Source: an uncultured Verrucomicrobiota bacterium
GTDB lineage: Bacteria; Verrucomicrobiota; Kiritimatiellia; CAYTQP01; CAYXEW01
Direction of reading: 5' to 3'
NCBI GenBank assembly: GCA_964464115.1
Contig: CAYXEW010000002.1
Location: 488-64,487, forward strand
DNA length: 64,000 bases
This document shows positions 6,699 through 63,636 of the stretch, piece by piece. How positions within the stretch are numbered: position 1 is the first letter of the stretch; each line of letters begins with the position of its first letter. Below the pieces are notes generated by a model. That model was not told the DNA's origin. It ran no database searches and saw only the letters and a program-made list of their open reading frames with translations. A program made the position numbers and the translations under genes.

Positions 6699-7583
6699 AT
6701 GCGTGCAGTTCTAAAGAATCGGATAAATAACGTGCTGACATCGATCTTTTTAGGAGTGATCAGTGTCGCACCCTTACATGCTCTCGCCGATGATGACTAT
6801 ACCGTGCTGAGCAACGCCATCTATGTTGCACATGCATCCAATGACGGAGACAGCTTCAGAGTACGCGCCGGAGAAGAAACATTGCTCATTCGGCTGTACT
6901 ACGTCGATTGCCCCGAAACCGTCATCAGCACTGAAAGCGACATGAAAAGGCTAAGATCACAGTCCCGGCATTTCGGCATCACCAATGACGCTGAGACGGT
7001 ACAGTTCGGACATCAGGCAGCGCAGTATGTACAGGAAATATTATCGAAGCCTTTTACGGTGTATACCGCCTATGCCCAGGCTCTAGGACGATCTAAGAGT
7101 GGCCGGGTATATGCGTTTGTAAAAACGCACGACGCCAGGGATCTCGCCTCCTTGCTGGTAGCCGAAGGCTATGCCCGCTCTCACGGTGTCGGCAGAGCGA
7201 CACCAGACGGCTTCAGTCGTGATGAAGAACAGGCTAAGCTGGCGGACAGCGAACTGGCAGCCGCTGTAAAGAAAAAAGGTATCTGGAGCGCCTCTGTTCC
7301 AGACAGGATTGTCGGACTCAGGGCCCAACAAAGGGAAGAAGACGAAGCATTTAAAAATCTCAAAACAGAACTGCAGAAAGCTGTACAGCCAAAACTGCCC
7401 CTCAACATTAATACAGCGACAGACATCGAACTGCAGAAAATAAAGGGAATAGGCCCTGTACTCGCACAGAAAATCATTCAGAACAGACCCTACAAGACGC
7501 TGGATGAACTGCTTACTATATCCGGAATAGGCCCACAGACAATACAGCGAATAGCGCCATACCTTACCGCCGATGATTTATAA
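6699..7583 (+). CDS. Secreted thermonuclease (SNase-like) fused to a C-terminal ComEA-type helix-hairpin-helix DNA-binding domain
   Basis: Signal peptide. YYVDCPE (DxPE calcium site) SNase core. C-terminal LNINTATDIELQKIKGIGPVLAQKII...ISGIGPQTIQRI matches ComEA HhH. Starts 9 nt after the sigma54 activator stop. Confidence 0.7.
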   Translation: MRAVLKNRINNVLTSIFLGVISVAPLHALADDDYTVLSNAIYVAHASNDGDSFRVRAGEETLLIRLYYVDCPETVISTESDMKRLRSQSRHFGITNDAETVQFGHQAAQYVQEILSKPFTVYTAYAQALGRSKSGRVYAFVKTHDARDLASLLVAEGYARSHGVGRATPDGFSRDEEQAKLADSELAAAVKKKGIWSASVPDRIVGLRAQQREEDEAFKNLKTELQKAVQPKLPLNINTATDIELQKIKGIGPVLAQKIIQNRPYKTLDELLTISGIGPQTIQRIAPYLTADDL

Positions 7584-7715
7584 ATAACATTATTGTTGCT
7601 TTTAATACATATTTATACAATATTGTTTTCGTAAACAAAACTATAGACATATCAAGCAACGATTATTGCACAGAAAAGACGTATATAAGCATACTTCTTC
7701 AATTGGTAATAAAGT

Positions 7716-7732
7716 TGGCACGCCTACTGCTT
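7716..7732 (+). promoter_or_regulatory. Sigma-54 (-24/-12) promoter TGGCACgcctacTGCTT upstream of the outer-membrane protein gene
   Basis: GG-N10-GC spacing, near-perfect match to TGGCACG-N4-TTGCW. About 135 nt upstream of the ATG at 7865. Confidence 0.6.
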
Positions 7733-7864
7733 GATAAACGGTTCAGAAAGCACTGCTAAAAAAGATATTGCAAGTTTGATGTTTATATAGTAACATTTGT
7801 TTAAATTAATTTGCCGGGCGACGAAATAAAAGCGCGGCAGAGTAAAAGAAAGGAAGAATAAAGT

Positions 7865-8620
7865 ATGAGAATGAATATAGCAAAAACAGTAGCCGTTGCA
7901 ATGCTCGCCCCGCTGGCGGCGTTTGCAGCAGACGCATCAGTGGGTGTAGATTTTGCATCCGCCTATGTATTCCGTGGTGTTACGTTTAACGACGGACTCG
8001 TCGCTCAGCCGTATGCCGATGTTTCAGGACTGCCGATAGACTTTGGCGTCTGGGCCAACCTGGACCTCAGCGATCATGATGGCGCTTTGGAAGAGGGACA
8101 GTTCAGCGAAGTTGACCTGTACGCCTCTTACTCGCTGCCCATCGAAGGACCTGTAGGTCTCAGTATTGGTTACACCGAATATCTGTACCCAGGTGCTGGT
8201 GGCGATCCCGAACCGAACGATGAAGGCGACATTGTCGCAACACAGGGAGAAGCTGACCGTGAACTTAGTCTAAGTGCAGGACTCGATACCGTTCTCGCCC
8301 CGTCACTGACCGTGTACTACGGCCTCGACGGCGCAATTGAAAGCGGCATCTACGTTGAGCTCGCAGTTGAAGCCGGGATGGATCTCTCTGAAGCAGCATC
8401 CCTCTCTATCGGCGCAACGTTGGGCTACTACAGTCCCGATGAAGGCGAAGAAGGCCTCAACGATGGATCTGTGTCGGCAGGCATTTCCTACGCGCTTTCC
8501 GAAAGCGCTGAAATTGCAGCATCGGTAACCTATGTTGCACAGCTCGACGACGAAGTACTCAGCGATGAAGACTATGATACCGAAATATTCGGCGTGGTAG
8601 GTGTTTCATACGGATTTTAA
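7865..8620 (+). CDS. Acidic outer-membrane beta-barrel protein (putative porin), signal peptide, C-terminal YGF
   Basis: N-terminal signal peptide (AAFA-AD). Alternating amphipathic strands, Asp/Glu-rich, terminal Phe typical of OMPs. Confidence 0.5.
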   Translation: MRMNIAKTVAVAMLAPLAAFAADASVGVDFASAYVFRGVTFNDGLVAQPYADVSGLPIDFGVWANLDLSDHDGALEEGQFSEVDLYASYSLPIEGPVGLSIGYTEYLYPGAGGDPEPNDEGDIVATQGEADRELSLSAGLDTVLAPSLTVYYGLDGAIESGIYVELAVEAGMDLSEAASLSIGATLGYYSPDEGEEGLNDGSVSAGISYALSESAEIAASVTYVAQLDDEVLSDEDYDTEIFGVVGVSYGF

Positions 8621-46370: not shown

Positions 46371-47555
46371 ATGAAAATATTGATCATTAACGCGGGCAGT
46401 TCATCAGCAAAGTTCACCTTGTACGAAGAGGAATCTCTTTTAGCCAAAGGTCTCATTGAAAGGCTGGGAACGCCTGAAGCGCGGCTCAAGTACTCCAACA
46501 ACCGGAACCAGAAAATCGAAAAGAGCGTAACAGCCAACTCTTTTGAGGCCGCTATACGCCATGCCTGTCTCGCCTTGGACGATAAGGAAACAGGCGTCAT
46601 TGAAAAACTGACCGATATCGATGCCATTGGCCACCGCGTTGTGCACGGGGGTGACGCCATATCTTCCTCAGCCCGTATCACCCCGGGAATCAAACAGATC
46701 ATCCGTGACAACTTTTCTCTGGCACCGCTCCATAACCCGCCCAACATGGAAGGCATCGAAGCCTGTGAGGCTCTCTTTCCCAATACGCCCATGGTAGCCG
46801 TCTTTGACACAGCCTTCCACCAGTCGATGCCCGCGGCCGCCTATACGTATGCCCTGCCCGCAGAACTTGCCGAGAAACACAAGATCAGACGATATGGTTT
46901 TCACGGGACATCGCATCACTACGTTACCATCCAGGCGGCGAACTTACTGGGCCGACGAGTTGATGAAGTAAAACTGATCACCACCCATCTGGGCAACGGG
47001 TGCAGCATTACCGCTGTTAATAAAGGTAATGTGGAGGACACCAGTATGGGGCTGACACCGCTGGAAGGACTGGTTATGGGAACGCGAAGCGGCGATATCG
47101 ATCCGGGTGTCGTACTGTTTCTCCTGCGCTTGGGATACAGCACAGATGACGTGGATAAGCTGCTGAATAAATCCAGCGGCATTAAAGGTGTAGCCCGCAA
47201 TGGCAGCTCCGATATGCGCGATCTGATCGATTCCGTGGAACAGGGAGATAAACAGGCCCAGCTCGCTTTTGATATACTGCTCCATCGACTGGTTAAGTAT
47301 ATTGGGGCTTACGCCGCCGTCTTGAACGGTTTTGATGCGCTGGTTTTCACGGCCGGAATCGGTGAGAATTGTTCAAAACTGAGAGCATCAGTCTGTAATC
47401 GGCTAGGCTGCTTGGGTATCACTCTGGACCCCGCGAAGAATAAAGCGAATGAACACATCATTTCGAAGGAATCCTCCAGCCCTATTGTAATGGCTGTTCC
47501 CACTAATGAGGAACTGATGATTGCCAGAGAAACGATGAGAGTCCTTGAGGCTTAA
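46371..47555 (+). CDS. ackA: Acetate kinase
   Basis: 394 aa with ASKHA fold motifs. Confidence 0.95.
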   Translation: MKILIINAGSSSAKFTLYEEESLLAKGLIERLGTPEARLKYSNNRNQKIEKSVTANSFEAAIRHACLALDDKETGVIEKLTDIDAIGHRVVHGGDAISSSARITPGIKQIIRDNFSLAPLHNPPNMEGIEACEALFPNTPMVAVFDTAFHQSMPAAAYTYALPAELAEKHKIRRYGFHGTSHHYVTIQAANLLGRRVDEVKLITTHLGNGCSITAVNKGNVEDTSMGLTPLEGLVMGTRSGDIDPGVVLFLLRLGYSTDDVDKLLNKSSGIKGVARNGSSDMRDLIDSVEQGDKQAQLAFDILLHRLVKYIGAYAAVLNGFDALVFTAGIGENCSKLRASVCNRLGCLGITLDPAKNKANEHIISKESSSPIVMAVPTNEELMIARETMRVLEA

Positions 47556-47579
47556 CGTAATATAGAAAGGTAGTGCCGT

Positions 47580-48584
47580 ATGAGTTTATTGGATGACATG
47601 ATCCCCAAAGCACAGCAGGCAGGAAAAACGATCGTACTCCCTGAAGGCCATGATCCCCGCATTATCGATGCTGCGAAACAAATCGCTGAAAAAATGATCG
47701 CAAAAGTCATCGTGTTAGCCGATGCCGATGAGCTGAACGACATAGATAGTTCGATACAGTCGGATCACCTATGCATTTGGAATTATAAAACATCAGAACA
47801 CCGGGAACAGCTCGGGGAAGCTTTTCAGGTTGTGCGCGTGCATAAAGGTATTACCCGCGAGCAGGCTATGGAAGCGATGGATGATCGCCTTTATTTTGCC
47901 AATATGATGATACGAAATGGACTGGCTGATGGTTTAGTTGCGGGCAGTATTGCATCCACTGCTGATATGCTCAGAGCTTCTTTTCAGTGCATTGGTACTG
48001 CTGATGGCATCAACATTGCCAGCAGTTCATTTCTGATGGAACTGGCCTCCCCCTCGCCTGCAGGCGATCGGGTTCTCGCCTTCGCAGACTGTGCCGTCAA
48101 CCCGAATCCTTCCGCAGATGAATTAGTTGATATCGCTCTGTCAACGGCACAGACACACACGGCATTGGTCGGAACGCAGCCCAGAGTCGCCTTTCTTTCT
48201 TTCTCCAGCCGCGGCAGTGCCAAACATGAGCTGGTAGAGAAAGTCCAAACGGCTACCGCTAAAGCAAAGGAAACTGTCGCTGCAAAGGGCCTGGATATGC
48301 TGATTGACGGTGAGCTTCAACTCGATGCTGCCATTGTCCCTAAGGTGGCGGCCAAGAAATGTGCTGACAGTCCGCTCAAAGGCGCCGCCAATATTCTCAT
48401 CTTTCCGGATCTTCAGGCCGGCAATATTGGTTATAAACTGACAGAGCGACTGGCCGGCGCCAAAGCTCTCGGGCCGGTACTCCAAGGGTTGGCGAAGCCG
48501 GTAAATGATTTATCGCGTGGTTGCAGCGTTGACGACATCATAGGTGTTGCCGTCATCACCGCCTGCCAAGCCGCAGTGGAATAA
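47580..48584 (+). CDS. pta: Phosphate acetyltransferase (short form, PTA_PTB domain only)
   Basis: 334 aa, 24 nt after ackA. Confidence 0.9.
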   Translation: MSLLDDMIPKAQQAGKTIVLPEGHDPRIIDAAKQIAEKMIAKVIVLADADELNDIDSSIQSDHLCIWNYKTSEHREQLGEAFQVVRVHKGITREQAMEAMDDRLYFANMMIRNGLADGLVAGSIASTADMLRASFQCIGTADGINIASSSFLMELASPSPAGDRVLAFADCAVNPNPSADELVDIALSTAQTHTALVGTQPRVAFLSFSSRGSAKHELVEKVQTATAKAKETVAAKGLDMLIDGELQLDAAIVPKVAAKKCADSPLKGAANILIFPDLQAGNIGYKLTERLAGAKALGPVLQGLAKPVNDLSRGCSVDDIIGVAVITACQAAVE

Positions 48585-49751: not shown

Positions 49752-51329
49752 TTAAAGCGTAACACAGAATGCAGCTTCTGCATCGATTTGCGCTGTGATT
49801 TTTTTAATGGTCTCGTCATCTACTACTTTGTTGACCTTCAGAATGGCGATCGACTTTGACCCTTTGGAATCGTGCGGGTTACGCACATCGTCAATATTGA
49901 TGTCGGCCGCGGCGAGGCCGGTGGCCACCTGACTCAAGACGCCGGGCCGATCCCGATAGATGAATACACAGGTAATACCTTTGGGATCAAAATACAGTTT
50001 ATCAAAGTCATCGATGCGGGAAACCATCATGGTACCTTCCGCCACTGTTCCACGGACACTGCATCGCCGCAGATTGCCAGCATCCCTGCTGGCGGTGAGG
50101 TCGATGGTGATGGAATTGTCAAAACCTTTGGTGTCATCCACTCGGCGATCCTCGTAATCAATACCCATATCCTGCAAGAAAGTCAGTGCGGCATCGCGAT
50201 CCATGGAGCGGTCAAATTCTTCGCTCAAAGCGGCCACGGTAGGAATAATCAACCATTCGGAAAAAGGTTTCAAATAGCCGTAAAAACTGGTTTCAATGAG
50301 TTTTAATTGCGCATCCTTTCCCACCATGGAGCGAGCCAGGCGGGCCAGCGTATAAGCCAGATCAGCAAATGATTCATCCAAACCTTCCGGTATATCGCGG
50401 TTGACAATATAGGAAGTGACACCCTTTTCATCAAACTCAATGAGCTGTTCGGCGGCGCGGCGGGCAGCGTTCAGGTTTGCCTCAGCAGTGCTGGCACCCA
50501 GGTGGGGCAGCATTAAATCGGCCACGGCCGCGACGGATTTTTCACCCTCTTCATCTTTCGGATAAACATCATTTAAATAATGAACATGCTTTTCCTCTTT
50601 GACTTTTTGAAGATCCGCTTCGTTAATAATCCCCGCACGGGCGCAATTCACAAGCGTCGCATTTTCTTTCATAAGAGAGAGTAAATCATAGTTGATCATT
50701 CCGCGAGTCTCATCATTTTCCGGAATATGCAGCGATATGTAATCGCATTGCTCAAAAAGAGTGCTCATGTCGGCCAATTCGATACCCAGCTCCCGAGCGC
50801 GGTCTTCTGCAATAAACGGGTCATACCCCATCAGGCGCATTTCGAAACCAGCCAGTCGTTTGGCCACCAACCGTCCAATAAAACCGAGACCGACGATGCC
50901 CATTGTTTTTCCGGTCACCTCTTTACCCATAAAGTTTTTCTTTTCCCATTTGCCGGACCGCACCGATGGGTCTGCCTTTACAATATGGCGCGCATCAGCA
51001 AGCATCATCGCAATGACTTCTTCCGCCACCGCATTAGAATTGGCACCCGGCGTATTCATCACATCAATGCTGTGGGAACGGGCATACGTAGTATCGATGG
51101 TATTATAGCCGGCACCGGCGCGAATCACGACCTTGAGCTGGGGCAACAAATCCATCACTTCCGGTGTTACCTTTTCACTGCGCACGATCAAGGCATAAGC
51201 ATCCGTATGCTCTTTAGCCAACGAAACAATATCGGCACCCTCATCCTGAATAACCAGATAGAGACCGCTCTTTTCTAAAAGCTGCTTAGCAATGCCGTTA
51301 AGTTTAGTGGGTATCAATACTTTCTTCAT
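49752..51329 (-). CDS. serA: D-3-phosphoglycerate dehydrogenase (with C-terminal ASB/ACT regulatory domains)
   Basis: 525 aa with GxGxxG NAD site and catalytic R/H/E. Confidence 0.85.
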   Translation of the reverse strand: MKKVLIPTKLNGIAKQLLEKSGLYLVIQDEGADIVSLAKEHTDAYALIVRSEKVTPEVMDLLPQLKVVIRAGAGYNTIDTTYARSHSIDVMNTPGANSNAVAEEVIAMMLADARHIVKADPSVRSGKWEKKNFMGKEVTGKTMGIVGLGFIGRLVAKRLAGFEMRLMGYDPFIAEDRARELGIELADMSTLFEQCDYISLHIPENDETRGMINYDLLSLMKENATLVNCARAGIINEADLQKVKEEKHVHYLNDVYPKDEEGEKSVAAVADLMLPHLGASTAEANLNAARRAAEQLIEFDEKGVTSYIVNRDIPEGLDESFADLAYTLARLARSMVGKDAQLKLIETSFYGYLKPFSEWLIIPTVAALSEEFDRSMDRDAALTFLQDMGIDYEDRRVDDTKGFDNSITIDLTASRDAGNLRRCSVRGTVAEGTMMVSRIDDFDKLYFDPKGITCVFIYRDRPGVLSQVATGLAAADINIDDVRNPHDSKGSKSIAILKVNKVVDDETIKKITAQIDAEAAFCVTL

Positions 51330-52055
51330 TCAATTCTCCGATTTTTCGCTCACATTAACCTGAAACGGGTGGACATTAGCAAACCTGATTCAGAAAGGCA
51401 AGTTTCCCTTGAACATCACACCATTGGATTTTCAGCAACGTACCACTGGAAATCGACCGAAGCCTCTATCAGCAGTCCAAAGCTCTAAATACGGTGATGT
51501 TTGCAGAGTGCAGCAATCCTGGCGTCATAAATCCTGGCGCCGAGCACCTAACCTTGATTAACGGTATTCATGAAACAATCCCAATAGCCGGTTCCTTGTA
51601 GAATTTCGTGGAAGATGAAAAATAGAGACGGTTAATGGAAAGGTCCATTGATGCGGCAACTAAATGAATCATGAGTAATCTGGGCATACTCAGCTATTCG
51701 TGGCCCCCGCAGGGATTTTCTTGCCGAAATCTGGTTTTCGGCAAGTGTCTGCACAGCAGCGAATGGTGTCTGTTCCCGTCCGCGGGAACCGGTCAATCGG
51801 ATCGCTCCGAAGTCTCGAGAGCGCTCCGTGGGGTCGGAGCGCGATATTGCGTCGAATGTTTTGCTTTCAGGGGGCGAGCGTTTTCTAGGTGCAACATTCA
51901 TTGCTCATTGCTGTTCATCATATACCATTCGTTATGGCGTTTTTTATGAATAATGCAGACTACGTATTACTTGCAGTAAAGCCATCGCTGCGGGATGGCT
52001 TAGTTGGCTTAATTATCCACCTCGGAGCGGTGGATATACGTATCTGAACGCGTCA

Positions 52056-53015
52056 TTACGGGAGTGTGACAGCAACCAATTTTGCTCTGACAAATCCAAG
52101 CATCAGGTCATAATCTGCCTGTAGGGGCAGAAGGTGCCACGGGTGCTTCCAGGGCAGGATATCAACTCTCTTTTCCGCCTCAATATACCGCTCAACATTG
52201 ATCACCGCCGCGACCAGGTGCTCCAGTTTTGACTTCTCCGGCAGCGTCGCCTTCGGCATCGCTCTGCACTGTACGGCCTTCCATTCACGGCCCATTGCGT
52301 GCAGCTCAACAGGTTTAACGGTCAGCGTAAACGGATACAATACTCCGCCGATGTTCAGCTCAAGGCGGGGTGATTTTTCAGCGGTCCCTTCAGGCGGGGA
52401 AGCTGCGACACGGGCATCCAGGTAATCTAGCACAGGCTCTACATCCTGTCCGCGACTCAGGAAGTCCTTTGCCTCGGGCGGCTCGTCTTGTAACTCCTGT
52501 TTAACAGCGTCATACGCAAAGAATTCAGGGATTGAGTCATGGAGCAGAGCATAACTGCATGTTTTCCTCATACGCGTTTTTGTAAAAAACACCCTCACAT
52601 ATTCGTCTATTTTTTTGGCATAGAAGACAGTGCGCATATCGCTTTTATCGACGGCCGTTATAAGCCGGTCATCCATATGAACAAAATTCTCGTCTTCGAA
52701 ATCATCATGCCCTGATGTAAGCCTAACATCGACGAGATAGACAGGTGTATACTCCTGCTTCGGGTCATACTGCCAGAGTCCCTCCGCAATCTCGACTGTT
52801 GCCTGCCCCACGTGAAAGAGGCGCAGAAACAGAAATCGATAGTCAAATTTGTACTGGAGCGTCAATAGGGGTGTCTTTTCAGCTACGCGCGTCTCAAGAC
52901 TTCGGGTCACTCGGTTCGACCAATCTGTAAACGGGTCTGACGCGGCATGGAGATGCTGAAGACAGCAGCCACACAATACCGACAAGAAAGGTAATATATA
53001 CCGCATTTTCATCAA
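52056..53015 (-). CDS. Secreted hypothetical protein (DUF3108-like?), last gene of the envelope operon
   Basis: Signal peptide. Start overlaps the upstream gene's stop by 4 nt. Confidence 0.5.
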   Translation of the reverse strand: MMKMRYILPFLSVLCGCCLQHLHAASDPFTDWSNRVTRSLETRVAEKTPLLTLQYKFDYRFLFLRLFHVGQATVEIAEGLWQYDPKQEYTPVYLVDVRLTSGHDDFEDENFVHMDDRLITAVDKSDMRTVFYAKKIDEYVRVFFTKTRMRKTCSYALLHDSIPEFFAYDAVKQELQDEPPEAKDFLSRGQDVEPVLDYLDARVAASPPEGTAEKSPRLELNIGGVLYPFTLTVKPVELHAMGREWKAVQCRAMPKATLPEKSKLEHLVAAVINVERYIEAEKRVDILPWKHPWHLLPLQADYDLMLGFVRAKLVAVTLP

Positions 53016-53950
53016 AATCGATACTGCAGGTAAAGTCGCGTCTGGTGCCTTGGATCAGGCTTTAAAGACAGGTCGGCATCTACTGCCTGCAAGCTGAGTG
53101 ACAGCCTGTCTCGATTGTAACGATGGGCGGCATCTATGCCACCATATATACTGCCGGAGTACCAGGTAAGCTCAAAAAAGGTAATAACAGAGAAGGCACC
53201 CCACTGCTCCTCTTCGGCCGTACTGATCATCCCGTAGATAAAGATACCGTTTAGAATCATAGAGCGAATGCCATTGGCATATTCTCCGGAATAGAAATAG
53301 CCAAGACCGGGGATGAGCCCCAAAAGTCCCCCTACAGCCGGTTTCTTATCGCGTCCCTCACGGTATTGAATAATGGCATCACGGGCACGACGGCCGGCAG
53401 CTGATTCGGGCAAGGACTTCAAAGCCTTCTCCGTCTTTCCACTGCGCATGAAGGATCCTGCAGTCCTGAGAGCTATATATTGAGATAGCTCATCGGAGTC
53501 CGGCTCAACGCTTTCATAATAGAACCGGGCAGACTCATAATCGTTCAGCTCTAACGCTATATCCCCACGAAGCAGCATGGCGGCGTTTTCAATACTCACC
53601 GATGCATCTTCTGCACCATCGAGCATGGATTGAGCCCTACCATAATCTTTATCCATGTAATAGTTATAACCCGCCATCCACAAATACGAACTCTTACCTT
53701 CTTCATCAGTGGCATCGACGGCCATCCGGCGGAATTCCAGTGCAGATAAATTAAAATCACCTTCTTCCGACAGCGACCAGGCTAGCTCATTTTGACTGTC
53801 TGCCACGACCGAAATACTGCAACATATCCAAAACAAGGAGAGCAAAATATAACCCATAGCATGGTGAGAAGGCAGGGTTGTCGGGCACAGACAGCCACGA
53901 CGTTTTGAACCAATGCAAACTACCCGATTTCGCAAAAACTTATTCATCAT
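53012..53950 (-). CDS. Hypothetical envelope protein with TPR-like periplasmic region, hydrophobic Gly/Tyr-rich segment (GLLGLIPGLGYFYSG) and C-terminal ...LYLQYRF
   Basis: ATGA overlaps with both neighbours. Terminal aromatic residue is OMP-like. Confidence 0.5.
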   Translation of the reverse strand: MMNKFLRNRVVCIGSKRRGCLCPTTLPSHHAMGYILLSLFWICCSISVVADSQNELAWSLSEEGDFNLSALEFRRMAVDATDEEGKSSYLWMAGYNYYMDKDYGRAQSMLDGAEDASVSIENAAMLLRGDIALELNDYESARFYYESVEPDSDELSQYIALRTAGSFMRSGKTEKALKSLPESAAGRRARDAIIQYREGRDKKPAVGGLLGLIPGLGYFYSGEYANGIRSMILNGIFIYGMISTAEEEQWGAFSVITFFELTWYSGSIYGGIDAAHRYNRDRLSLSLQAVDADLSLKPDPRHQTRLYLQYRF

Positions 53951-54777
53951 CGTTTCCTCATCCAGAAATCATGATCTTCAACGAGGTCGAGAACACGCTC
54001 TCTCCCGCCCACTATGACAACTTTCTTCTTTTGCTGCACGACGGAGGGTTCCCGGTAGAAGCGATCAGCCTGCATAGCAAAACCGAGCAATCCATGTTTT
54101 TTGCAGGCTTGCATGAAATACTCTGAACAACTGGGCTCGCAGGAGCAGCGCATGGCAATGGCCGAGGAAATCTGTGATCGATAAAAGGTCACAATCCACT
54201 TTGCCACAGGACGCCCAACCGAAAGCCCCTTGCGCTGATGAATGCGTGACTCCGCAAACAGCTCGCCATACCAGAAGTCGCGAGTTGAATTCACCTGCAT
54301 AAAGGTGTCAGCATGGTCTTGCTTGAGTGCCGGATATTCTTCCGTCAAAAGGAATAGACTGCATGCACTATGTAAAAAAAGATCCTGGTTTTGAGCATGT
54401 TTGAATGCCCGCTCGAAGGCCCCGAATGCATCAGCTATCCGACCCCTCCTCCACATTTCACGACCGTAGAGGTAAGCGGCCATCGACATCTCCTCTGGTC
54501 GGTCCGTTTGTGATGCAAGATTGATTAGTGTTGCAAGGGCATGATCCATTGAACGGCCGAGCATCAACCTAGCTTCAGCCCTGATCAGCAGGGCCTTTGG
54601 GCTGTTTACACCCGCTTGAATCATGCGGGAGCTCTCCAGCAGACAGGCTTCCCAGTCTCCCTCTTCATACAGTTCAAGTAACAGCTCTTCAGCAACCGCA
54701 TAAGGCGACAAAAAAAGGATTCCGGCCATTACAGCCGGAATCCTTTTTCTAATCAACTTAGCAACAGTGGAAATCAA
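53947..54777 (-). CDS. Fusion protein: signal peptide + TPR-like domain + C-terminal YidD-like domain (membrane protein insertion efficiency factor fold)
   Basis: C-terminal YRSQISSAIAMRCSCEPSCSEYFMQACKKHGLLGFAMQADRFYR aligns to the YidD core (Y..IS....CRF.P[ST]CS.Y...A....G...G). Confidence 0.6.
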   Translation of the reverse strand: MISTVAKLIRKRIPAVMAGILFLSPYAVAEELLLELYEEGDWEACLLESSRMIQAGVNSPKALLIRAEARLMLGRSMDHALATLINLASQTDRPEEMSMAAYLYGREMWRRGRIADAFGAFERAFKHAQNQDLFLHSACSLFLLTEEYPALKQDHADTFMQVNSTRDFWYGELFAESRIHQRKGLSVGRPVAKWIVTFYRSQISSAIAMRCSCEPSCSEYFMQACKKHGLLGFAMQADRFYREPSVVQQKKKVVIVGGRERVLDLVEDHDFWMRKR

Positions 54778-55067
54778 TAGTATGATGCACCGTATTTTTC
54801 TGCGTAGTCGGCAGACGTCATGCCGTCGTATCCTTCAACACCTGTAATAATGGCAAACACAATATTTACGTAGGGAACCAGCATAACCCATTCACGCCAG
54901 TGGATTTCTTTGCCCTCATTATAATCGCCGGCAGCGCGAACGCCAAAACAGCAACCAGAAATAAGACCCATAATTCCGCCACGACCTGAACCCTTGGCTT
55001 CAGCAACCGGAGCAACAACCAGTGTCAACATTACGGCCACCATCAACAGTGCTACAATTTTCTTCAT
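54774..55067 (-). CDS. Small secreted/membrane protein (signal peptide + 2 hydrophobic segments, CC pair)
   Basis: 97 aa, coupled by ATGA overlap to the YidD-fusion gene. Confidence 0.45.
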   Translation of the reverse strand: MKKIVALLMVAVMLTLVVAPVAEAKGSGRGGIMGLISGCCFGVRAAGDYNEGKEIHWREWVMLVPYVNIVFAIITGVEGYDGMTSADYAEKYGASYY

Positions 55068-55163
55068 ACTCTACCCTCCATATTTAGGTTTGCACTACTT
55101 CGTAATCCTAGTAAACAGATCATTTAATATCAAATAAAGATATGCATTATTTTTACCAACAGC

Positions 55164-55937
55164 TCACTCATATATTTCCTTAAAGGTCTTCACATAGTCC
55201 ACCCCTTTGAGGAAATGATCAGCGATGAACAAGCCTTCCGCAATCGGCTCATTTACGGTCAGATCACTAACCCTCAGCGTTTCACTGCCATCTTCTTTAC
55301 CTATCAGAATCTGTGCATCATGCTTTAAAGGCATCCACAAACCGGACATGATCTCTTTGTACTCTGAATAATCATACCTTGCCTGCATGCGACCCTGCGC
55401 ATCTCCTTCATAGTAGAGAATAGAGGATAGCCTGTTACGCTCATCTGTATTGACTTCTGCGAAAAAACCGTCCCCTTTATAACCGAATGACAGGCCGCCG
55501 GCATCTTTTGGTTTGAGCAACTCTTCTTCCAAACCCTTCAACTTGAGCAGATGATCCATCGGGGTACCCGGCACGCGGCGCAATTCCGCGATCTGCTCCC
55601 CGCTCAACTGCTCAATAGGCCTGGAAAAACCTTTGGGTTCGCCTGTAATATAATAGTAAAAATGTTTGCCATCGGCAATGATCCGCCTCTTTAGAGGTGC
55701 AATATTGTCCACATGTATAAAGTCTCCCCGCTTCCAGTAGATGCGACTCAGGCGGCGCACCTTTTGGTCCCCCACTTCCGAAACCCGACGTATTTTACAG
55801 GACAATGATTCGATGCGGTTATAATTTACGAGCAATCGGTCAATGGCCGTCTCTGCATGAACAGAAATGCAACATAACAAGAGGAGTAAAACGAAACTCC
55901 GAACGGCCTTATTCATTTTCAACAAGTTGTTGCTCAT
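55164..55937 (-). CDS. LolA/LolB-fold outer-membrane lipoprotein carrier-like protein
   Basis: Signal peptide plus RIIADGKHFYYYI-type LolA-like beta-barrel pattern. Start trimmed to MSNNLL; the ORF begins at GTG 55967. Confidence 0.5.
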   Translation of the reverse strand: MSNNLLKMNKAVRSFVLLLLLCCISVHAETAIDRLLVNYNRIESLSCKIRRVSEVGDQKVRRLSRIYWKRGDFIHVDNIAPLKRRIIADGKHFYYYITGEPKGFSRPIEQLSGEQIAELRRVPGTPMDHLLKLKGLEEELLKPKDAGGLSFGYKGDGFFAEVNTDERNRLSSILYYEGDAQGRMQARYDYSEYKEIMSGLWMPLKHDAQILIGKEDGSETLRVSDLTVNEPIAEGLFIADHFLKGVDYVKTFKEIYE

Positions 55938-56129
55938 TTTGCACCCCCAATCTGCACACTCTTTCACCTGTTAACTCAATATATTGCTGTTTTATATCAT
56001 CACTGCAAAAGGCTGACCAGATTAATTCACAGAACCTGCCCATAGTTGACTGCATTCTTTGTGAAACATTAGCTGTTTGCCGGTCAGAAAACTTAAGACT
56101 TTGGCCCAAAGCGGAACTTGTCAACGAAC

Positions 56130-56152
56130 GGGTCGGACCTGTGCAGTTTGTT
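56130..56152. repeat. Copy of GGGTCGGACCTGTGCA(G/A)TTTGTT repeat (island boundary/regulatory motif)
   Basis: 22/23 identical to 58027..58049. Confidence 0.7.
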
Positions 56153-56206
56153 AATTGCTGGGTGTTCATCACGTAGCGTCACTTGACTGGTTAGCATTTT
56201 TTAGTT

Positions 56207-56539
56207 TTAATCGAATTCACTGGAGTTGAACGGGGCCGGTTCAATTTGATGATTAGTCAGAAATCTCATGGGTTGTAGTGAGTGATAATCATCTAGAAAT
56301 TTCTTTGCCATATTATTTAGAGGTTGAGGATTTGAGATTCTCCGAATTTTCCAAATGAACTCATCTCTTAAGTTTTCAATAAACTCGGAGTAGTCCTCTG
56401 ATCCAACATCTAAACTGTACGCTCCACCAATCTGCTTGCACCTCTCAACAAGGTTCATTCCTATTGAAGTTAAGACAAGATCCGAACCTTGGTTCAGTAC
56501 GATGTAATCACGTTCAGCTTTGGTGAATATTATTTTCAT
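56207..56539 (-). CDS. Hypothetical small protein in a low-GC (about 40%) segment
   Basis: Start at MKIIFTKAE. GC well below the neighbours. Confidence 0.45.
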   Translation of the reverse strand: MKIIFTKAERDYIVLNQGSDLVLTSIGMNLVERCKQIGGAYSLDVGSEDYSEFIENLRDEFIWKIRRISNPQPLNNMAKKFLDDYHSLQPMRFLTNHQIEPAPFNSSEFD

Positions 56540-56693
56540 TTTATCTACTGCTAATGCCGCGCTCACCAGTTTGACTGGACGATAGCAGACGCAGTCTGCG
56601 GGAGGCCAGACAAATCTGGTGAAGTGGTCTTGATCTGCGGCACGCAGAGCGAGATCACGAACGCAGTGAGCGCGGCAATGGAGCGCCAGCGGT

Positions 56694-56723
56694 GAAAGCG
56701 GGGTTGAAAGCGGGGGTCGGACC
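56694..56723. repeat. Tandem GAAAGCGGGG units ending in GGTCGGACC, abutting the stop codon of the beta-propeller gene
   Basis: Shares the AAGCGGGGGTCGGACC core with 57995..58036. Confidence 0.7.
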
Positions 56724-57914
56724 TCACGGCTTCGTCAACACAATTCTGTAGACGCGCTCGGTTTCACTCGAAGGCTCGGGGCGTCCCGGGCCGCCCAGGT
56801 CGGCCCATGTGCAAACCACGGAACCGGCGCGTACGGTATCGGCATGGGCCCAGGGTCCGAGAAGGTCGTCCGCCCATTCAATGTCATAGGTCGCGCCCAC
56901 AATGCCTGTCCAACTGATGGCCGTCGTCCGCGAAACCGACACCACAGCGAGCGGGCGATGGTTCCGGTAGATGTTTCCAAACGATCCGGCGGCCCAGACA
57001 TCACCCGGACCTGAACATACCAGACCGTACACCGTGTTGATGTTGGTCGAAAACGTCACATGCGCGCCATCGTAGAAGTACAGGCCTCGATCAACACCGT
57101 TATACCCAAGCCAGACGTTCTCCCCGTTCCAGGAATCCACGATGGCCACGTTTATTGTGTTGGTGCATCCATCAATCGGAATGGTGCTCCACGTCTCGCC
57201 GTTGAAATGGGCCAAGAACCCCTCATCGCCTGCAATCCACACGTCACACACGCTCCTGGCGTGCACGTCGCGCAGATATCGGGAAGGACTCATTTTAAAT
57301 ACCGCTTGCGTGCTCCAGGCGCTGCCGTCATAAAAGTACACAACATTGCTGCCGCTCGGAGGGCTCCCCACGGCCCAGATGTGTTGGGAATCAAGTCCGT
57401 CAATAGCGCTCATTATAGCGGAACCCACGTCGCATTCAATCGCCCAGTCCAGCCCGCCATTGGTCGATCGGATGATATTTCCTGACATGGCGCACAGCCA
57501 CACATTACTCGGGTCGGAAGCATACACATCGTAGACATACGTGCCCACCGCACTCGGCAAATCGCTGAGCTTGGACCAACTACCGGCATCCCGGAAAAAC
57601 ACCGAGTTGGTCGTCGACACAGAACTGCGTCCAACCGTCCAGACATGGTCGACGTCAAGTGCGTAAGCGCCCCGCAGCTCTCCCTGGTCTCCATCGTAAA
57701 AGGCCTGATACTCCTTTGCCCAGGAGGTTCCATCGAACCGATAAATCGCGCCACTCGAAGAATTCCCCCCCATGAACCACACATTGCTCGCGTCCGCAGC
57801 GGCCGATCCCTGCGGATTTAAGTTCGGAATCGTATCAAACAGCTCCCACTCCCCAGCAGAAACCATACACGCAAAAACCCCCGCAACAAACAACAGCATA
57901 AACAACTTTTTCAT
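56724..57914 (-). CDS. Secreted beta-propeller repeat protein (BNR/Ycf48-like repeats)
   Basis: Signal peptide plus about 7 repeats of the (N/D)VW(A/L)xGxxGxI...DGxxW pattern. GC about 58%. Confidence 0.55.
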   Translation of the reverse strand: MKKLFMLLFVAGVFACMVSAGEWELFDTIPNLNPQGSAAADASNVWFMGGNSSSGAIYRFDGTSWAKEYQAFYDGDQGELRGAYALDVDHVWTVGRSSVSTTNSVFFRDAGSWSKLSDLPSAVGTYVYDVYASDPSNVWLCAMSGNIIRSTNGGLDWAIECDVGSAIMSAIDGLDSQHIWAVGSPPSGSNVVYFYDGSAWSTQAVFKMSPSRYLRDVHARSVCDVWIAGDEGFLAHFNGETWSTIPIDGCTNTINVAIVDSWNGENVWLGYNGVDRGLYFYDGAHVTFSTNINTVYGLVCSGPGDVWAAGSFGNIYRNHRPLAVVSVSRTTAISWTGIVGATYDIEWADDLLGPWAHADTVRAGSVVCTWADLGGPGRPEPSSETERVYRIVLTKP

Positions 57915-59705: not shown

Positions 59706-60911
59706 CTAAAGTTGGGCTAGAATCTCGGGAAATGGCTCTAGAGCCTGCTTGAGAATACCCAGTGATTTGGCAATGGCAACTCCGTAGTTCGTAATAGGAA
59801 CGCCGGCCGCCTGGCATCGCAAAATGCGTGACAATACCAGCTTTCGATTCAATGTGCAGGACCCGCAGTGAATGACGAGCTTGTATCGCTCCATGTTCTC
59901 TGGAAAATCCAATCCCTGCACATGGGTGAACTCCAATTTTCCACCGACGTACTGCGTCAACCAGCGTGGAATTTTAATACGGCCAATATCTTCACCGATC
60001 GGATGGTGAGTGCAGGCTTCTGCCACCAGTATGTGATCGCCAGGCTTTACTGAGTCAATAGTTTGAGCACCGTCAACAAAGGCCTTCAGGTCGCCTTTCA
60101 ACCGGGCAAAAAGAATAGAAAACGATGTCATTTTTGACTGCGGCGGCATGTCGCCTGCCACTTTAAGAAAGGCCTGTGAATCGGTTATGACGAGTGCGGG
60201 AGGCTCTTTTAATCGATCCAGCGCATCCCGCATTTCACGCTCTTTTACCACCAGCGTGTAACAGTCATGATCCAGTATGTCGCGGATAGTCTGCACCTGA
60301 GGCAAAATCAAACGACCGCGCGGCGCTTCCAAATCAATGGGAACGACCAGCATCAGCAGCGAGCCCGGCGATACTAAATCTCCCACAATGGGCTGTTGAA
60401 TTAGTTTTTCATCGGGGACAGACTTGATCAGTGCCTCCCGCAAATCCAGCAACCCCGTCCCCTGCTTTGCCGATGTGAGCACACAGGGCACTTCCGGTGA
60501 AACCATAGCCCCATCCGACGGTTCAGCGAGGTCTGATTTATTCCAGACCACGATCACCGGTGTATTTCTTGATGCAAGCTCGCTCAGCAGATCCTTTTCA
60601 AAATCACCCCATTGAAAGCCTTCCGTTACAATCAGAGCCACATCCGTTCGATCCAGAGCCCTGCGGGTTTTTTCAATGCGCATCTGACCGAGCGCTCCGA
60701 CATCATCAATACCGGCTGTATCAATAAAGAGAACAGGCCCCAGCGGAAGCAGCTCCATCGGCTTTTCCACAGGATCCGTTGTTGTCCCCGCCTGCTCGGA
60801 AACAATGGAGACGGATTGATTCGTCAGGGCGTTGAGCAGTGATGACTTGCCGACATTTCGTCTGCCGAAAATGCCGATATGCAATCTCATTCCTTTGGGT
60901 GTCTTTTGCAT
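59706..60911 (-). CDS. hydF: [FeFe]-hydrogenase H-cluster maturation GTPase HydF
   Basis: N-terminal GRRNVGKSS GTPase domain plus C-terminal CxH...HCGSC FeS-binding motif. About 400 aa. Confidence 0.8.
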   Translation of the reverse strand: MQKTPKGMRLHIGIFGRRNVGKSSLLNALTNQSVSIVSEQAGTTTDPVEKPMELLPLGPVLFIDTAGIDDVGALGQMRIEKTRRALDRTDVALIVTEGFQWGDFEKDLLSELASRNTPVIVVWNKSDLAEPSDGAMVSPEVPCVLTSAKQGTGLLDLREALIKSVPDEKLIQQPIVGDLVSPGSLLMLVVPIDLEAPRGRLILPQVQTIRDILDHDCYTLVVKEREMRDALDRLKEPPALVITDSQAFLKVAGDMPPQSKMTSFSILFARLKGDLKAFVDGAQTIDSVKPGDHILVAEACTHHPIGEDIGRIKIPRWLTQYVGGKLEFTHVQGLDFPENMERYKLVIHCGSCTLNRKLVLSRILRCQAAGVPITNYGVAIAKSLGILKQALEPFPEILAQL

Positions 60912-61014
60912 AAGATTATTTATCCGCTGATTGCGCAGATTTACACAGATTATGTTTTATATACATTCGTTATCTGTCTCACCATTCAGCACTGGATATT
61001 CCACATACCTATAG

Positions 61015-62403
61015 TCAATGTCCCAACTTGTTTACCGCTTCAGCAGAGGTGAGTTCATCGTACTCTTCAGCACTCATGAGGTTTTTTTCAACGACCAAGT
61101 CTCTTAAAGACGTCGTATGACGTGCCTGCAGCTCTATGGCCAGCTGTTCGCCCTCTTTATAACCAATGCTTGATACCAGTGCGGTTATTGCGGCTGTTGA
61201 AGAATTTACACCTGCACGGCAGTGCCCTTCATCAGCTTTCATACCGTCCACACATTTTTCTTTCAACAAACGGCAGGCTGAACGTAGCAGGCTTAAGCTT
61301 TCAAGCAGTTTGTCCGCCACCAGTGGAAGAAAGGCATTCAGTTCTAAATGCCCCGCAGAGCATGCCTGTGTCACCGCTACATCATTACTCATCATATTCA
61401 CAGCGGCCTGCATAACCGCCTCCGGTATAACGGGATTGATTTTGCCCGGCATGATGGACGAACCGGCCTGCACCGGCGGCAGCGTGATTTCACCAATGCC
61501 GGCCTGCGGGCCGGAGCTCATAAACCGGAGGTCATTTGACATTTTATAAAGGCTCACCGCACAGGCTTTGATAATCCCGCTTACCTCGACATACACATCG
61601 CTATTCTGTGTAGCCTCCACTAGGTTTTCAGCGCGGGCCAGACCAAGGCCGGTGATCTCTTTCAGCTCAGGGACGACCTGAAAGATATAATCTCTTGGAG
61701 CACCAATGCCGGTACCGATCGCGGTGCCACCCAAATTCACTACCCTTAACCGCTCTTCACATTTGTAGATCCGCCAGCGATCCCGTGACAGCGCTTCGGC
61801 ATAGGCCGACATCTCACGCCCAAGGGTGGTAAGCACCGCATCCTGAAACTGCGTTCGCCCCACTTTGACAATATCGGCCCAGTCTTTTTCCTTTTCCTGG
61901 AAGGCCTCCATCAAGGCGATCACTTCAGTCTCCAGTCTTCGCAGGTTTTTAATAAGAGCAATTTTCAGTGCTGTCGGATACGTGTCATTGGTCGACTGAT
62001 GCAGGTTCACGGTGCGGAGCGGGTCCACAATTTCATACTGTCCGAGTTCGTACCCCATGCGTTGCAGCGTGCGGTTTGCGAGCACTTCATTTACGTTCAT
62101 ATTCGTTGACGTCCCGGCGCCACCCTGCAACGCATCCACCACTATATGCGCATCCAGCGCGCCATCCATCATTTCCATGCATGCGTGCTGAAGCTCGATT
62201 CCGACCTGTTCTGTGATAAAGCCCAACCGCCTATTGATATTACAGGCGGCCAACTTAACGGCGCCGTATGCGTGGATCAGATCGGGACGGACGGGGCGAA
62301 GACTCAACGGAAAATTATCGAGGGCTCTGGCTGTATGCGGACCAAACAGCCGTCCCGCGGGGACTTCTACTGTGCCTACTATATCTCGTTCACTGCGCAT
62401 CAT
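61015..62403 (-). CDS. aspA: Aspartate ammonia-lyase homologue (fumarase/aspartase class II)
   Basis: GSSIMPGKINPVIPE signature. Start placed at MMRSERDIVGTVEVPAG after AGGTG; the ORF extends to 62454. Confidence 0.8.
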   Translation of the reverse strand: MMRSERDIVGTVEVPAGRLFGPHTARALDNFPLSLRPVRPDLIHAYGAVKLAACNINRRLGFITEQVGIELQHACMEMMDGALDAHIVVDALQGGAGTSTNMNVNEVLANRTLQRMGYELGQYEIVDPLRTVNLHQSTNDTYPTALKIALIKNLRRLETEVIALMEAFQEKEKDWADIVKVGRTQFQDAVLTTLGREMSAYAEALSRDRWRIYKCEERLRVVNLGGTAIGTGIGAPRDYIFQVVPELKEITGLGLARAENLVEATQNSDVYVEVSGIIKACAVSLYKMSNDLRFMSSGPQAGIGEITLPPVQAGSSIMPGKINPVIPEAVMQAAVNMMSNDVAVTQACSAGHLELNAFLPLVADKLLESLSLLRSACRLLKEKCVDGMKADEGHCRAGVNSSTAAITALVSSIGYKEGEQLAIELQARHTTSLRDLVVEKNLMSAEEYDELTSAEAVNKLGH

Positions 62404-62517
62404 CACACACCTTCGTTGCCATGTGCTCATTATACTCATCTTCAGCCGAACCACAAGTCAGGCAGACTGAAACTATCCAACCACGGCGAACCTGCATATG
62501 GCCATACCTCGCACCAT

Positions 62518-63636
62518 TTAGACCAGTTCACGAAATACCGTATCGCTTATAAAATGAGCCCGCTCACTCAACTTGAGGCGGCCCGCCTCTTCGATGAGCA
62601 ATCCGTCTTTTTGAAGGTCTCTGATTTGTGAGCCGGCAAGGCTGTCAAACGTATACCCCGCCTTTTCTATGAATGCTGTTTCGGGCACTCCATCTACTAG
62701 ACGAAGCCAGGTAATCAGCACTTCACGGGCTTTCTCTTTCGAACCCAGTTTTTCGCTGAAAGAGTGCGGTCGGCGCCCAGCGTTCACGTGTGTTTCATAC
62801 ACCTTTATGTCCGGGATATTTGCACTTCTGACACCCTGGACATGCTCGTGTGCTGACGGCCCGTAACCGGCAAACTCACCGCCACACCAATACTTCATAT
62901 TGTGCCGACATTCATGACCGGGCAGGGCAAAATTTGATATTTCATAATGATGATATCCGAGTTTTTTCAAGCTATTGCGCAGCGATTCAAACTGCTGAGC
63001 AGCGAAGACTTCATAATCCTGAGAGCTCACTTCATGTATCCATTTTTTATAGAGAGGAACCCCTTTTTCCAATGACAGGCAGTAACTCGAAACATGATGC
63101 GGTCTCAGTGAAGCCACTAAAGAGAGATCCCGCTCCAGCCATGAGGCCGGTGAGGTCGGCACACCGTACATCAAATCAATATTCAAATTGAAATATCCGC
63201 ACTCCATAATGTGGTGGCATTTATGCAGGGCGTCTTCGGCCTGCCCGCGACGGCCCAGCCGACCGAGAGCATCCTGTTGAAAGCTCTGGATTCCCATTGA
63301 TATGCGCGTCACCCCGCGCTGCCGACAGACAGTCTCTTTTGCATCGGTCCATGAAGAGGGGTTACTCTCGACCGTCCACTCACAGACAGATGGTATTCCG
63401 CACGCTTTGCCAACGCTGTACAGCAGACGGTCAAACAGGGCGTCTTCCAAGCATGTAGGACTGCCACCACCGATAAATACGGTGTCTACAGGCTGCGGTG
63501 GCTTTCTCAGCAGCAGTTCACGCTCTAAAGCGTCGACAAAAGCGATATGATCCTCCTGCATACCGCGCTTTGAATAGAAAGAGCAGTAAGGGCATTTACG
63601 CTCACAGAAAGGAAGATGCACATATACGCCGTACAT
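62518..63636 (-). CDS. hemW: Radical SAM HemW/HemN-like protein (heme chaperone / coproporphyrinogen oxidase-like)
   Basis: N-terminal VYVHLPFCERKCPYCSF (HemN-family CxxxCxxC context), 372 aa. Confidence 0.75.
   Translation of the reverse strand: MYGVYVHLPFCERKCPYCSFYSKRGMQEDHIAFVDALERELLLRKPPQPVDTVFIGGGSPTCLEDALFDRLLYSVGKACGIPSVCEWTVESNPSSWTDAKETVCRQRGVTRISMGIQSFQQDALGRLGRRGQAEDALHKCHHIMECGYFNLNIDLMYGVPTSPASWLERDLSLVASLRPHHVSSYCLSLEKGVPLYKKWIHEVSSQDYEVFAAQQFESLRNSLKKLGYHHYEISNFALPGHECRHNMKYWCGGEFAGYGPSAHEHVQGVRSANIPDIKVYETHVNAGRRPHSFSEKLGSKEKAREVLITWLRLVDGVPETAFIEKAGYTFDSLAGSQIRDLQKDGLLIEEAGRLKLSERAHFISDTVFRELV

Follow-up and report, generated by a model that had tools for sequence, protein, structure and literature searches.

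What is the role of a YidD-like domain that lies behind an apparent export signal and outside the usual gene context of its family? The question is raised by gene C, found in a stretch of 64,000 nucleotides (nt) from an uncultured Verrucomicrobiota bacterium of the Kiritimatiellia (assembly GCA_964464115.1, contig CAYXEW010000002.1), and the whole of this stretch is called the window below. YidD is nearly universal in bacteria, yet what is understood of it reportedly comes from a single study in E. coli, which gave it a minor part in assisting insertion by YidC. The protein of gene C combines a predicted signal peptide, a tetratricopeptide repeat-like (TPR-like) domain, a divergent YidD core with its own C-terminal extension (together referred to here as YidD*), and its gene belongs to a conserved set of four, A-B-C-D, in which A encodes an exported protein with a predicted LolA-type fold. 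The domain make-up of C, its gene linkage, the natural fusions and the taxonomic range are described first, followed by a proposal in which YidD* may work on the periplasmic side of a membrane.

A divergent YidD core in gene C

The open reading frame (ORF) of gene C lies exactly where the preliminary description of this DNA had placed it, on the minus strand with 276 amino acids (aa), and the peptide quoted there, YRSQISSAIAMRCSCEPSCSEYFMQACKKHGLLGFAMQADRFYR, is found in its translation (coordinates in Table 1). Pfam family PF01809, the family to which the domain had been provisionally assigned, matches the protein significantly, with an E value of 8.8e-10 and 38.7 bits against a gathering threshold of 27 (residues 192-242, profile positions 4-55 of 67). 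TIGR00278 gives 40.9 bits against an equivalog cut-off of 40, a margin of 0.9 bit. When the profile of the C family is compared with E. coli K-12 YidD by hhalign, the probability is 95.4% over 61 columns, and the motifs Y-x-x-x-I-S-P, C-x5-C-S-x-Y (with both N-terminal cysteines), G-x-x-G and the following Arg fall in register. The expected correspondence of conserved Cys and Ser positions holds for the motif of C211, C217 and S218 but not for the third canonical Cys (K-C-H-P in E. coli), which is Glu243 in C. The motif had also been located in the last 45 residues of the protein; the alignment to the YidD core stands, but the motif covers residues 199-242 and another 34 aa follow.

Across 149 representatives of the family, C211, P215, C217, S218, D238, R239, R242 and E243 are conserved in 100%, and Glu243 is joined by Pro244 (96%) in place of the canonical Cys-His. 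Y199, R210, D264, H269 and W272 are kept in at least 97%, with D264 and H269 at 99%. The signature of YidD* can be written as R-C-x-x-x-P-S-C-S-x-Y ... A-D-R-x-x-R-E-P ... D-P-x-x-D-H-x-x-W. The Pro of I-S-P, which is the family consensus in 95%, is Ser in the window protein. The 34 aa after the motif are a conserved extension, in which REPSVV is followed by a beta-hairpin and then by D-P-x-x-D-H-D-F-W; the AlphaFold2 (AF2) model places strands at residues 253-256 and 259-263 and a helix at 266-273.

Residues 186-276 of C were compared exhaustively, by phmmer, with 1.84 billion representative proteins. The search returned 612 matches at E<=1e-3, of which 238 reach E<=1e-10, and the extension is covered by all of the best 150. 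Canonical YidDs far exceed 612 in number, and hence most of them fall short of significance in this search. Judged from these comparisons at the sequence level, YidD* of gene C is a distinct subfamily of YidD. The closest relatives of the window protein are 43-47% identical to it, which makes the source of the window a divergent member of the PVC group. A sequence search of the PDB with C matched no entry, the bS21 alignment at E 0.34 being spurious.

Start codon and predicted export signal

Export signals were called throughout from hydropathy and charge rules (a crude rule) read off the sequence. Translated from its TTG codon, gene C begins with M-I-S-T-V-A-K-L-I-R-K-R, continues with a hydrophobic stretch running from I-P-A-V-M to Y-A-V-A, whose end forms an A-x-A site, and goes on with E-E. 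The same layout, basic, then hydrophobic, then small-x-small, is seen in about 58 of 60 complete C homologues, about 200 residues ahead of the YidD core, in agreement with the N-terminal signal peptide that had been described for the window protein. The AF2 model has a predicted local distance difference test (pLDDT) score below 50 over residues 1-29, as expected for a signal peptide.

This segment requires translation from the TTG at 54777 or from the next TTG (54756), upstream of the ATG of Met17. In homologues of C the protein sequence ahead of Met17 retains (K/R)(K/R)-I-P-G...G-I-L-F-F. The long form is favoured because both the (K/R)-I-P motif and the layout are conserved in this upstream part; by that reasoning one of the two TTG codons is the favoured candidate for the real start, and the segment would be an export signal or an anchor. 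Shortened database calls probably mask the export signal in several other C homologues as well (P0005, P0010, P0013 and P0015).

The TPR-like domain

Between the signal-peptide-like segment and YidD*, the AF2 model of C shows ten helices from residue 25 to residue 177, with pLDDT 90-98. The top Foldseek matches in the PDB are all TPR proteins (MamA, consensus TPRs, PcrH and YbgF), with a probability of about 1.0 and E values of 0.03-0.1, and model and matches alike describe a helix-turn-helix repeat superhelix. The best Pfam match of this domain, to TPR_14, has E 0.015 and 16.4 bits against a gathering threshold of 23.5 and is thus sub-threshold. The TPR-like domain noted in the preliminary description is accordingly borne out by structure prediction and sub-threshold by sequence, and 'TPR-like' is the right level of claim for a domain recognised from its model. 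The same description had given about 220 aa of helical repeats behind the signal peptide; the signal-peptide-like segment and the helical repeats were recovered, but the whole part ahead of the motif is about 198 aa long.

The first TPR hairpin of C is homologous to that of D (hhalign 92%). In some relatives of C the TPR-like domain is shortened or absent, several having one TPR-like hairpin only, and one homologue (P0238) consists of a signal peptide and YidD* alone.

A conserved set of four genes

Gene C is the third of a tightly packed set A-B-C-D(-E) in which stops and starts overlap in the window. The TTG start of C overlaps the TGA stop of the upstream gene B by 4 nt (T-TTG-A); its 3' end lies 4 nt inside gene D, whose ATG overlaps the stop of C. 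Two homologous loci on long contigs (L001 and L002) have the same A-B-C-D order and wholly different flanks. Promoter and terminator scans of 51300-56800 gave counts no higher than those of shuffled sequences.

A survey of one genome per species (GTDB), with about 12 kb examined per locus, yielded 62 species loci of the module. They are labelled Kiritimatiellia or Pontiella (22), Lentisphaerae or Victivallales (13), unclassified Verrucomicrobiota (21) and PVC group (1), and 5 are unlabelled; the module was thus met in bacteria of the Kiritimatiellia/Lentisphaeria type only. At least two of the carriers are in culture, namely Pontiella sulfatireligans F21 and Victivallis vadensis. By tblastn, A is found beside C in 44 of the 62 loci, B in 56 and D in about 58. 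Clustering of all ORFs from 65 loci gave no recurrent family beyond A, C and D (merged through fusions) and B, the remainder being antisense artefacts, and no lolCDE genes recur among these 65 loci.

The position of C outside the rnpA/yidC context, which had been remarked on as unusual, extends beyond the window. Neither yidC nor rnpA is among the flanking genes scanned in the window, and a search of the window found no second YidD motif; likewise, neither gene stands beside the module in any of the 62 loci. A motif scan of 657 kb of these loci found no canonical YidD, the only hit being a paralogue of C, YidD2, which is described below.

Partner proteins A, B and D

The likely start of gene A is Met18, which gives a protein of 250 aa with the predicted signal peptide MNKAVRSFVLLLLLCCISVHA. 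Its AF2 model, built with 27 homologues, has a mean pLDDT of 93.1. In the PDB, Foldseek finds Pseudomonas aeruginosa LolA best (E 2.1e-9), then NE2245, LolB and LolA3 of Porphyromonas gingivalis, and E. coli LolA, with RseB lower in the list at E of about 1e-5. The PDB matches at E<=1e-3 number 62, and LolA, LolB, LolA-like or RseB structures make up nearly all of the 50 that were listed. The model and its matches place A in the LolA/LolB-type fold. The hhalign probability between A and E. coli LolA is 85%. Pfam LolA (PF03548) is matched by 11 of 45 relatives of A, at best with E 0.007 and below the gathering threshold; the window protein has no Pfam match, and TIGR00547 gives it 16.6 bits against a cut-off of 112. 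The support from sequence for membership of the LolA superfamily is therefore weak but consistent with the predicted fold. The crude signal-peptide rule holds for 35 of 44 homologues of A, and signal-peptide-like N-termini are found on A, B and D alike in the window and in the loci inspected.

The putative small membrane protein B carries a glycine zipper, G30-x3-G34-x3-G38-x3-G42, in which C39 is invariant and C40 is present in at least 90%. It continues with the loop N-E-G-K-x-I-H-W-R-E-W and ends in an acidic, Tyr-rich tail. An alignment of 55 sequences has 11 invariant residues, including G30, G31, G38, C39, G42, R44, N50 and G52. No Pfam family matches B, and the scan gave weak noise only. 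In L001 gene B is duplicated in tandem (7368-7974), with copies that are 61% identical. In L039 one B-like ORF (3754-4179) carries the G-C-C-F-G motif twice, and an extra copy of D (2647-3603) lies upstream of A.

The D protein of the window matches the Pfam families TPR_16, TPR_2 and TPR_21 below gathering, with such matches seen again across 57 members. The homologues of D fall in 655 clusters, every one of which is named hypothetical or TPR. Most of the 23 invariant columns lie in a block of about 70 residues that forms the putative membrane domain, and the C-terminus is conserved as L-x-F-x-F. No Pfam family matches the membrane domain; faint matches were seen to DUF6677 in D and to DUF5683 in its paralogue D2. 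A positive-inside analysis of D and B is ambiguous. The idea that B is a paralogue of the D membrane domain, prompted by a shared G-G-x-x-G-L-I-x-G, was rejected, the hhalign probability being 1% at the sensitivity of that comparison.

Table 1. Features of the A-B-C-D module and of the adjoining gene E (positions in the window)
Feature	Position	Strand	Description
Gene A	55164..55967	-	Exported LolA-superfamily protein (predicted); 267-aa ORF from GTG
Gene B	54774..55067	-	97-aa small membrane protein (putative); signal peptide, glycine-zipper helix, second hydrophobic helix
Gene C	53947..54777	-	YidD-like protein; 276-aa ORF: signal peptide (predicted), TPR-like domain, YidD-like domain, C-terminal extension
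C residues 1-29	54691..54777	-	Signal-peptide-like N-terminus: basic n-region KLIRKR, h-region IPAVMAGILFLSPYAV, A-V-A before EE
C residues 30-180	54238..54690	-	TPR-like all-helical repeat domain (AF2 and Foldseek)
C residues 189-245	54043..54213	-	Divergent YidD core: long N-terminal helix, R-C-x-x-x-P-S-C-S-E-Y, H-G-L-L-G, A-D-R-F-x-R-E-P
C residues 246-276	53950..54042	-	Family-specific C-terminal extension: beta-hairpin and short helix; D264, H269 and W272 kept in at least 97%
Gene D	53012..53950	-	312 aa; signal peptide or anchor, TPR domain, small putative membrane domain
D residues 205-272	53135..53338	-	Putative membrane domain; three Gly/Ser/aromatic-rich hydrophobic segments: GGLLGLIPGLGYFYSGEYANG, ILNGIFIYGM, WGAFSVITFFELTWYSGSIYGGIDAAHR
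Gene E	52056..53015	-	Lipoprotein-like, 319 aa; start overlaps the end of D; N-terminus L-S-V-L-C-G-C

Gene fusions and a duplicated module

Several loci join parts of the module in one polypeptide. In L056 and P0147 a signal-peptide-bearing LolA-fold domain is followed by YidD*, that is, A is fused to YidD*. YidD* is directly followed by D or by its membrane domain in four other cases: L064 has a signal peptide and YidD* directly before the D membrane domain, P0161 has a signal peptide and YidD* joined to full D, and P0247 and P0273 (563 aa) join full C to full D. The fusions mark YidD*, the D membrane domain, A and B as the predicted core, with the TPR parts as accessories. In the C+D fusions no hydrophobic segment lies between the signal peptide, YidD* and the D TPR, and hence YidD* and the D TPR must share one compartment.

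Two Lentisphaerae loci (L031 and L039) carry a second, diverged trio beside the first, made up of YidD2, D2 and a second LolA-like gene. Each member is related to its counterpart by hhalign (YidD2 to C 97.8%, D2 to D 99.0%, the second LolA-like protein to A 97.6%). YidD2 of L039 scores 51.1 bits with PF01809 and shares the C-terminal extension of C, and in YidD2 His269 is replaced by Asn and Arg242 by His. Since the trio is duplicated as a unit, it gives independent support for a common function of C, D and A, and the second module suggests an older, wider family of exported pairs of YidD and TPR-membrane proteins.

The second module lies at 1612-4399 in L031 and at 8444-12127 in L039, and consists of the LolA-like gene, a signal peptide with YidD2 in 174-179 aa, and the TPR protein D2. 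The motif of YidD2 is H-C-P-x-H-P-S-C-S-N-Y ... A-D-R-L-L-H-E ... Y-A-D-P-V-E-R-N-D-F-W-W, and that of the D2 membrane domain is L-P-G-A-G-Q-L-Y. A protein of about 100 aa with a DUF5683-like P-G-x-G-x-W-Y motif also belongs to it. Between the two modules of L039, at 7611-8360 on the minus strand, a 249-aa ORF ends in G-L-G-F-N-F and has an alternation like that of a small outer-membrane beta-barrel. A PF13505 (OMP_b-brl) gene is found about 4 kb upstream of the module in L001; the link to beta-barrels is possibly coincidence.

Comparison with known systems

Yu et al. 2011 (J Bacteriol 193:5242, as cited in PMC8082313) reportedly describe canonical YidD as a factor that associates with the membrane and lies close to nascent membrane proteins at Sec/YidC. 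The E. coli K-12 reference, b4557, has 85 aa and is encoded in the rpmH-rnpA-yidD-yidC operon. C and this reference have a core signature in common. An N-terminal helix closes with Y-(R/Q)-x-x-I-S-P and is followed by C-x-x-x-P-(S/T)-C-S-x-Y; next come a helix, G-x-x-G and one more helix, which closes with Arg. An action at the membrane interface would presumably be common to both as well. C has 276 aa with a predicted signal peptide and a TPR-like domain of about 150 aa, whereas YidD has about 85 aa and neither of these; R-E-P stands where canonical YidD has K-C-H-P, with its third Cys and His; and the canonical ending G-G-x-D-P-V-P is replaced or interrupted by the beta-hairpin and the D-H-D-F-W helix. 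E. coli yidD lies beside rnpA and yidC, and C beside genes for a LolA-fold, a glycine-zipper and a TPR-membrane protein. C is probably on the opposite side of the membrane from canonical YidD. The TIGR00278 equivalog describes a small single domain (about 70-100 aa) without an export signal and associated with rnpA/yidC, and C departs from this description on each count.

Protein A resembles LolA and LolB (PDB 2w7q, 1ua8, 1iwm and 3buu; P. gingivalis LolB 9tpm and LolA3 9tp6) in its predicted unclosed beta-barrel with helices, its signal peptide and its periplasmic character. It differs in having about 250 aa against about 180-200 aa, in a sequence similarity that is sub-threshold, in not being encoded with lolCDE, and in sharing, in some genomes, one polypeptide with a YidD-like domain. 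We know of no YidD-like partnership described for LolA or LolB.

The TPR arrays of C and D are similar to those of CpoB/YbgF, BamD/YfiO and LapB in being short and placed by a membrane element in an envelope operon, with weak matches to these proteins. Unlike them, they reach no family threshold, and they form a related pair of their own that is dispensable in some relatives. The first hydrophobic segment of D and D2 (G-L-I-P-G-L-G-Y-F-Y and L-P-G-A-G-Q-L-Y) recalls the P-G-x-G-x-x-Y of DUF5683 and DUF6677 at E 0.04-0.06, but these matches cover about 25 residues only and are far below thresholds. To our knowledge the two DUF families themselves have no known function.

Proposed function and alternatives

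We propose that C is the periplasm-facing YidD* subunit of a four-protein extracytoplasmic A-B-C-D module that is coupled to a LolA-type carrier and not to YidC, a reading whose chances we put at about even. The natural A+C and C+D fusions, the duplicated trio and the A-B-C-D linkage together argue for one extracytoplasmic complex. In such a complex C would be exported via Sec, its signal peptide being cleaved or kept as an N-terminal anchor, and YidD* would face the periplasmic side of the membrane, not the cytoplasm. B and the D membrane domain would form a membrane-embedded core, and the related TPR domains of C and D would scaffold the periplasmic part. The place of YidD* would be the membrane interface, matching the position of canonical YidD on the cytoplasmic face, and there it would help hydrophobic cargo to enter or leave the bilayer. 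The LolA-like A would hold that cargo in its cavity; the cargo would most plausibly be the acyl chains of lipoproteins or some other envelope component with a lipid anchor. The module would in this way be a trans-side counterpart of the 'insertion efficiency' of YidD, coupled to a LolA-type carrier instead of YidC. A bolder version, which we regard as doubtful, would make the YidD fold a general membrane-interface 'insertion catalyst' on either face, and the module a periplasmic machine that inserts or extracts the lipid-anchored cargo of a LolA-type carrier. If that were true, the module would be a functional stand-in for LolB-type insertion of outer-membrane lipoproteins, a step that is unexplained in Kiritimatiellia and Lentisphaeria.

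A number of points weigh against the proposal of an extracytoplasmic, LolA-coupled module. The export signal of gene C is called from hydropathy and charge rules. The database gene call for C (P0001, 260 aa) begins at Met17 and drops the basic n-region, and an AGGA lies 11 nt upstream of the Met17 ATG, which makes the short form possible as far as the DNA itself goes. About three Lys and Arg in the 10 residues before the first D segment would normally be an 'inside' signal, and D segments 1 and 3 and B helix 1 are only modestly hydrophobic, with a mean hydropathy of about 0.8-1.1; membrane spanning by these segments is putative, in either the inner or the outer membrane. The window protein departs from its family at strongly conserved positions (P205S, G208A and P265L), and the members of the family are known from sequence and models alone. 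Cargo and direction are read purely from the LolA fold, and proteins with this fold also serve as sensors (RseB) or in other roles. The biochemical activity of YidD is not established, and 'works like YidD' is therefore a weak mechanistic anchor.

The opposite reading, that C is an ordinary cytoplasmic YidD which aids YidC/Sec insertion, is extended by a TPR adaptor and has a hydrophobic N-terminal stretch that is no export signal, would explain why PF01809 is passed and TIGR00278 just passed (40.9 against 40), why NCBI names one homologue (P0016) 'membrane protein insertion efficiency factor YidD', and why the database gene call starts at Met17. We consider it very improbable in view of the basic-plus-hydrophobic N-terminus that is conserved upstream of that Met, the linkage to three proteins with signal-peptide-like N-termini, and the fusions that put YidD* behind a LolA-fold domain or before the D membrane domain. 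The lack of rnpA and yidC near C in the window and the 62 loci, the lost third Cys and the subfamily-specific extension also speak against it, as do the 612 matches at E<=1e-3 among 1.84 billion representatives, which leave most canonical YidDs unmatched. In another reading YidD* would be a catalytic or a metal/redox domain, in which Cys211 and Cys217, with Glu243 and Asp264, bind a metal or form a redox-active pair, and would chemically modify an envelope lipid or protein brought by A. The strictly conserved residues (C211, C217, S218, D238, R239, R242 and E243 at 100%, D264 and H269 at 99%) are unusually polar for a membrane-binding element, canonical YidD keeps Cys, Cys and Cys-His, a classic metal-ligand pattern in our own interpretation, and HydF in the window fits an anaerobe, in whose periplasm thiols could stay reduced. 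YidD2, with Asn for His269 and His for Arg242, shows that neither a Cys-His-Asp triad nor a His ligand holds in general, and no PDB sequence matches C. We know of no enzymology for any YidD, and this too is counted against a catalytic role, which we take to be unlikely.

Two other explanations give A or the TPR domains a different part. If A sensed mislocalised lipid, lipopolysaccharide or lipoprotein in the manner of RseB, with the other subunits transmitting or buffering the signal, the module would be an envelope-stress or lipid sensor; RseB is indeed among the structural matches of A (E of about 1e-5), and TPR-plus-membrane regulators such as LapB, itself among the weak matches, offer a precedent. 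LolA and LolB carriers match A better than RseB by 3-4 orders of magnitude, however, the genes that recur in the loci include no sigma or anti-sigma factor, kinase, protease or transcription factor, and the tail of about 40 aa that D has past its membrane domain is without a recognisable output domain, which leaves a sensor improbable. A structural tether or scaffold of the Tol-Pal/CpoB kind, or an assembly like the SlyB-type glycine zippers, would organise microdomains or link membranes without transport. It would make good use of the TPR domains of C and D (the Foldseek matches of C and the weak TIGRFAM matches of D include YbgF/CpoB), of the glycine-zipper helices of B and D, typical of oligomerising membrane proteins, and of the conserved L-x-F-x-F at the end of D. 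A LolA-fold carrier and a YidD-family domain are unexpected in a pure scaffold, and the A+YidD* fusions join two 'handling' domains directly; Pfam scans found no peptidoglycan-binding domain (OmpA, LysM or SPOR). We give this explanation little probability.

Gene E and the flanking genes

Gene E was considered as a fifth subunit and rejected, as a jackhmmer search over all ORFs of the 65 loci found it in the window and in L002 only, with 25% identity between the two. It has no Pfam or NCBIfam match and, from this distribution, is best placed as a lineage-specific passenger outside the conserved module. In L001 an unrelated 219-aa lipoprotein stands at the position of E; the gene position after D may be taken by lipoproteins that vary between loci and are possibly clients.

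Upstream of the module, at 56724-57914 on the minus strand, lies a 396-aa secreted protein with beta-propeller-like repeats and a weak Pfam match to Rax2 (29 bits), and between it and the module is a 119-aa ORF (56207-56566) without a family. Neither of the two recurs in the other loci. The window flanks further encode a 2-hydroxyacid (SerA-type) dehydrogenase, a nitronate monooxygenase-family protein, Pta, AckA, HydF, fumarase and a radical-SAM protein. HydF (the [FeFe]-hydrogenase maturation GTPase), the HemN-like radical-SAM protein, fumarase and pta-ackA lie around the region at 59706-63636 and 46371-48584, and they fit a fermentative anaerobe. Cultured Kiritimatiellia are fermentative anaerobes.

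Implications for the YidD family

A search of the literature library available found nothing on exported or TPR-fused YidD, nor on YidD in taxa of the Kiritimatiellia/Lentisphaeria type. Annotation pipelines give C proteins the name 'membrane protein insertion efficiency factor YidD' because their scores lie just above the equivalog cut-off of TIGR00278, and this name is probably too specific for the family. An exported YidD* that has lost one signature Cys and is tied to a LolA-fold carrier by operon and by fusions would offer a new way to probe the YidD fold, and suggests that this fold handles hydrophobic segments or lipid anchors at the membrane surface, independently of YidC. The module is also compact and uncharacterised, and it includes two families without a Pfam model, B and the D membrane domain. 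With Pontiella sulfatireligans F21 and Victivallis vadensis in culture, it is accessible to experiment. Taken at this strength, the findings suggest that A-B-C-D is an undescribed envelope-assembly (biogenesis) module, which may handle lipoproteins or lipids.

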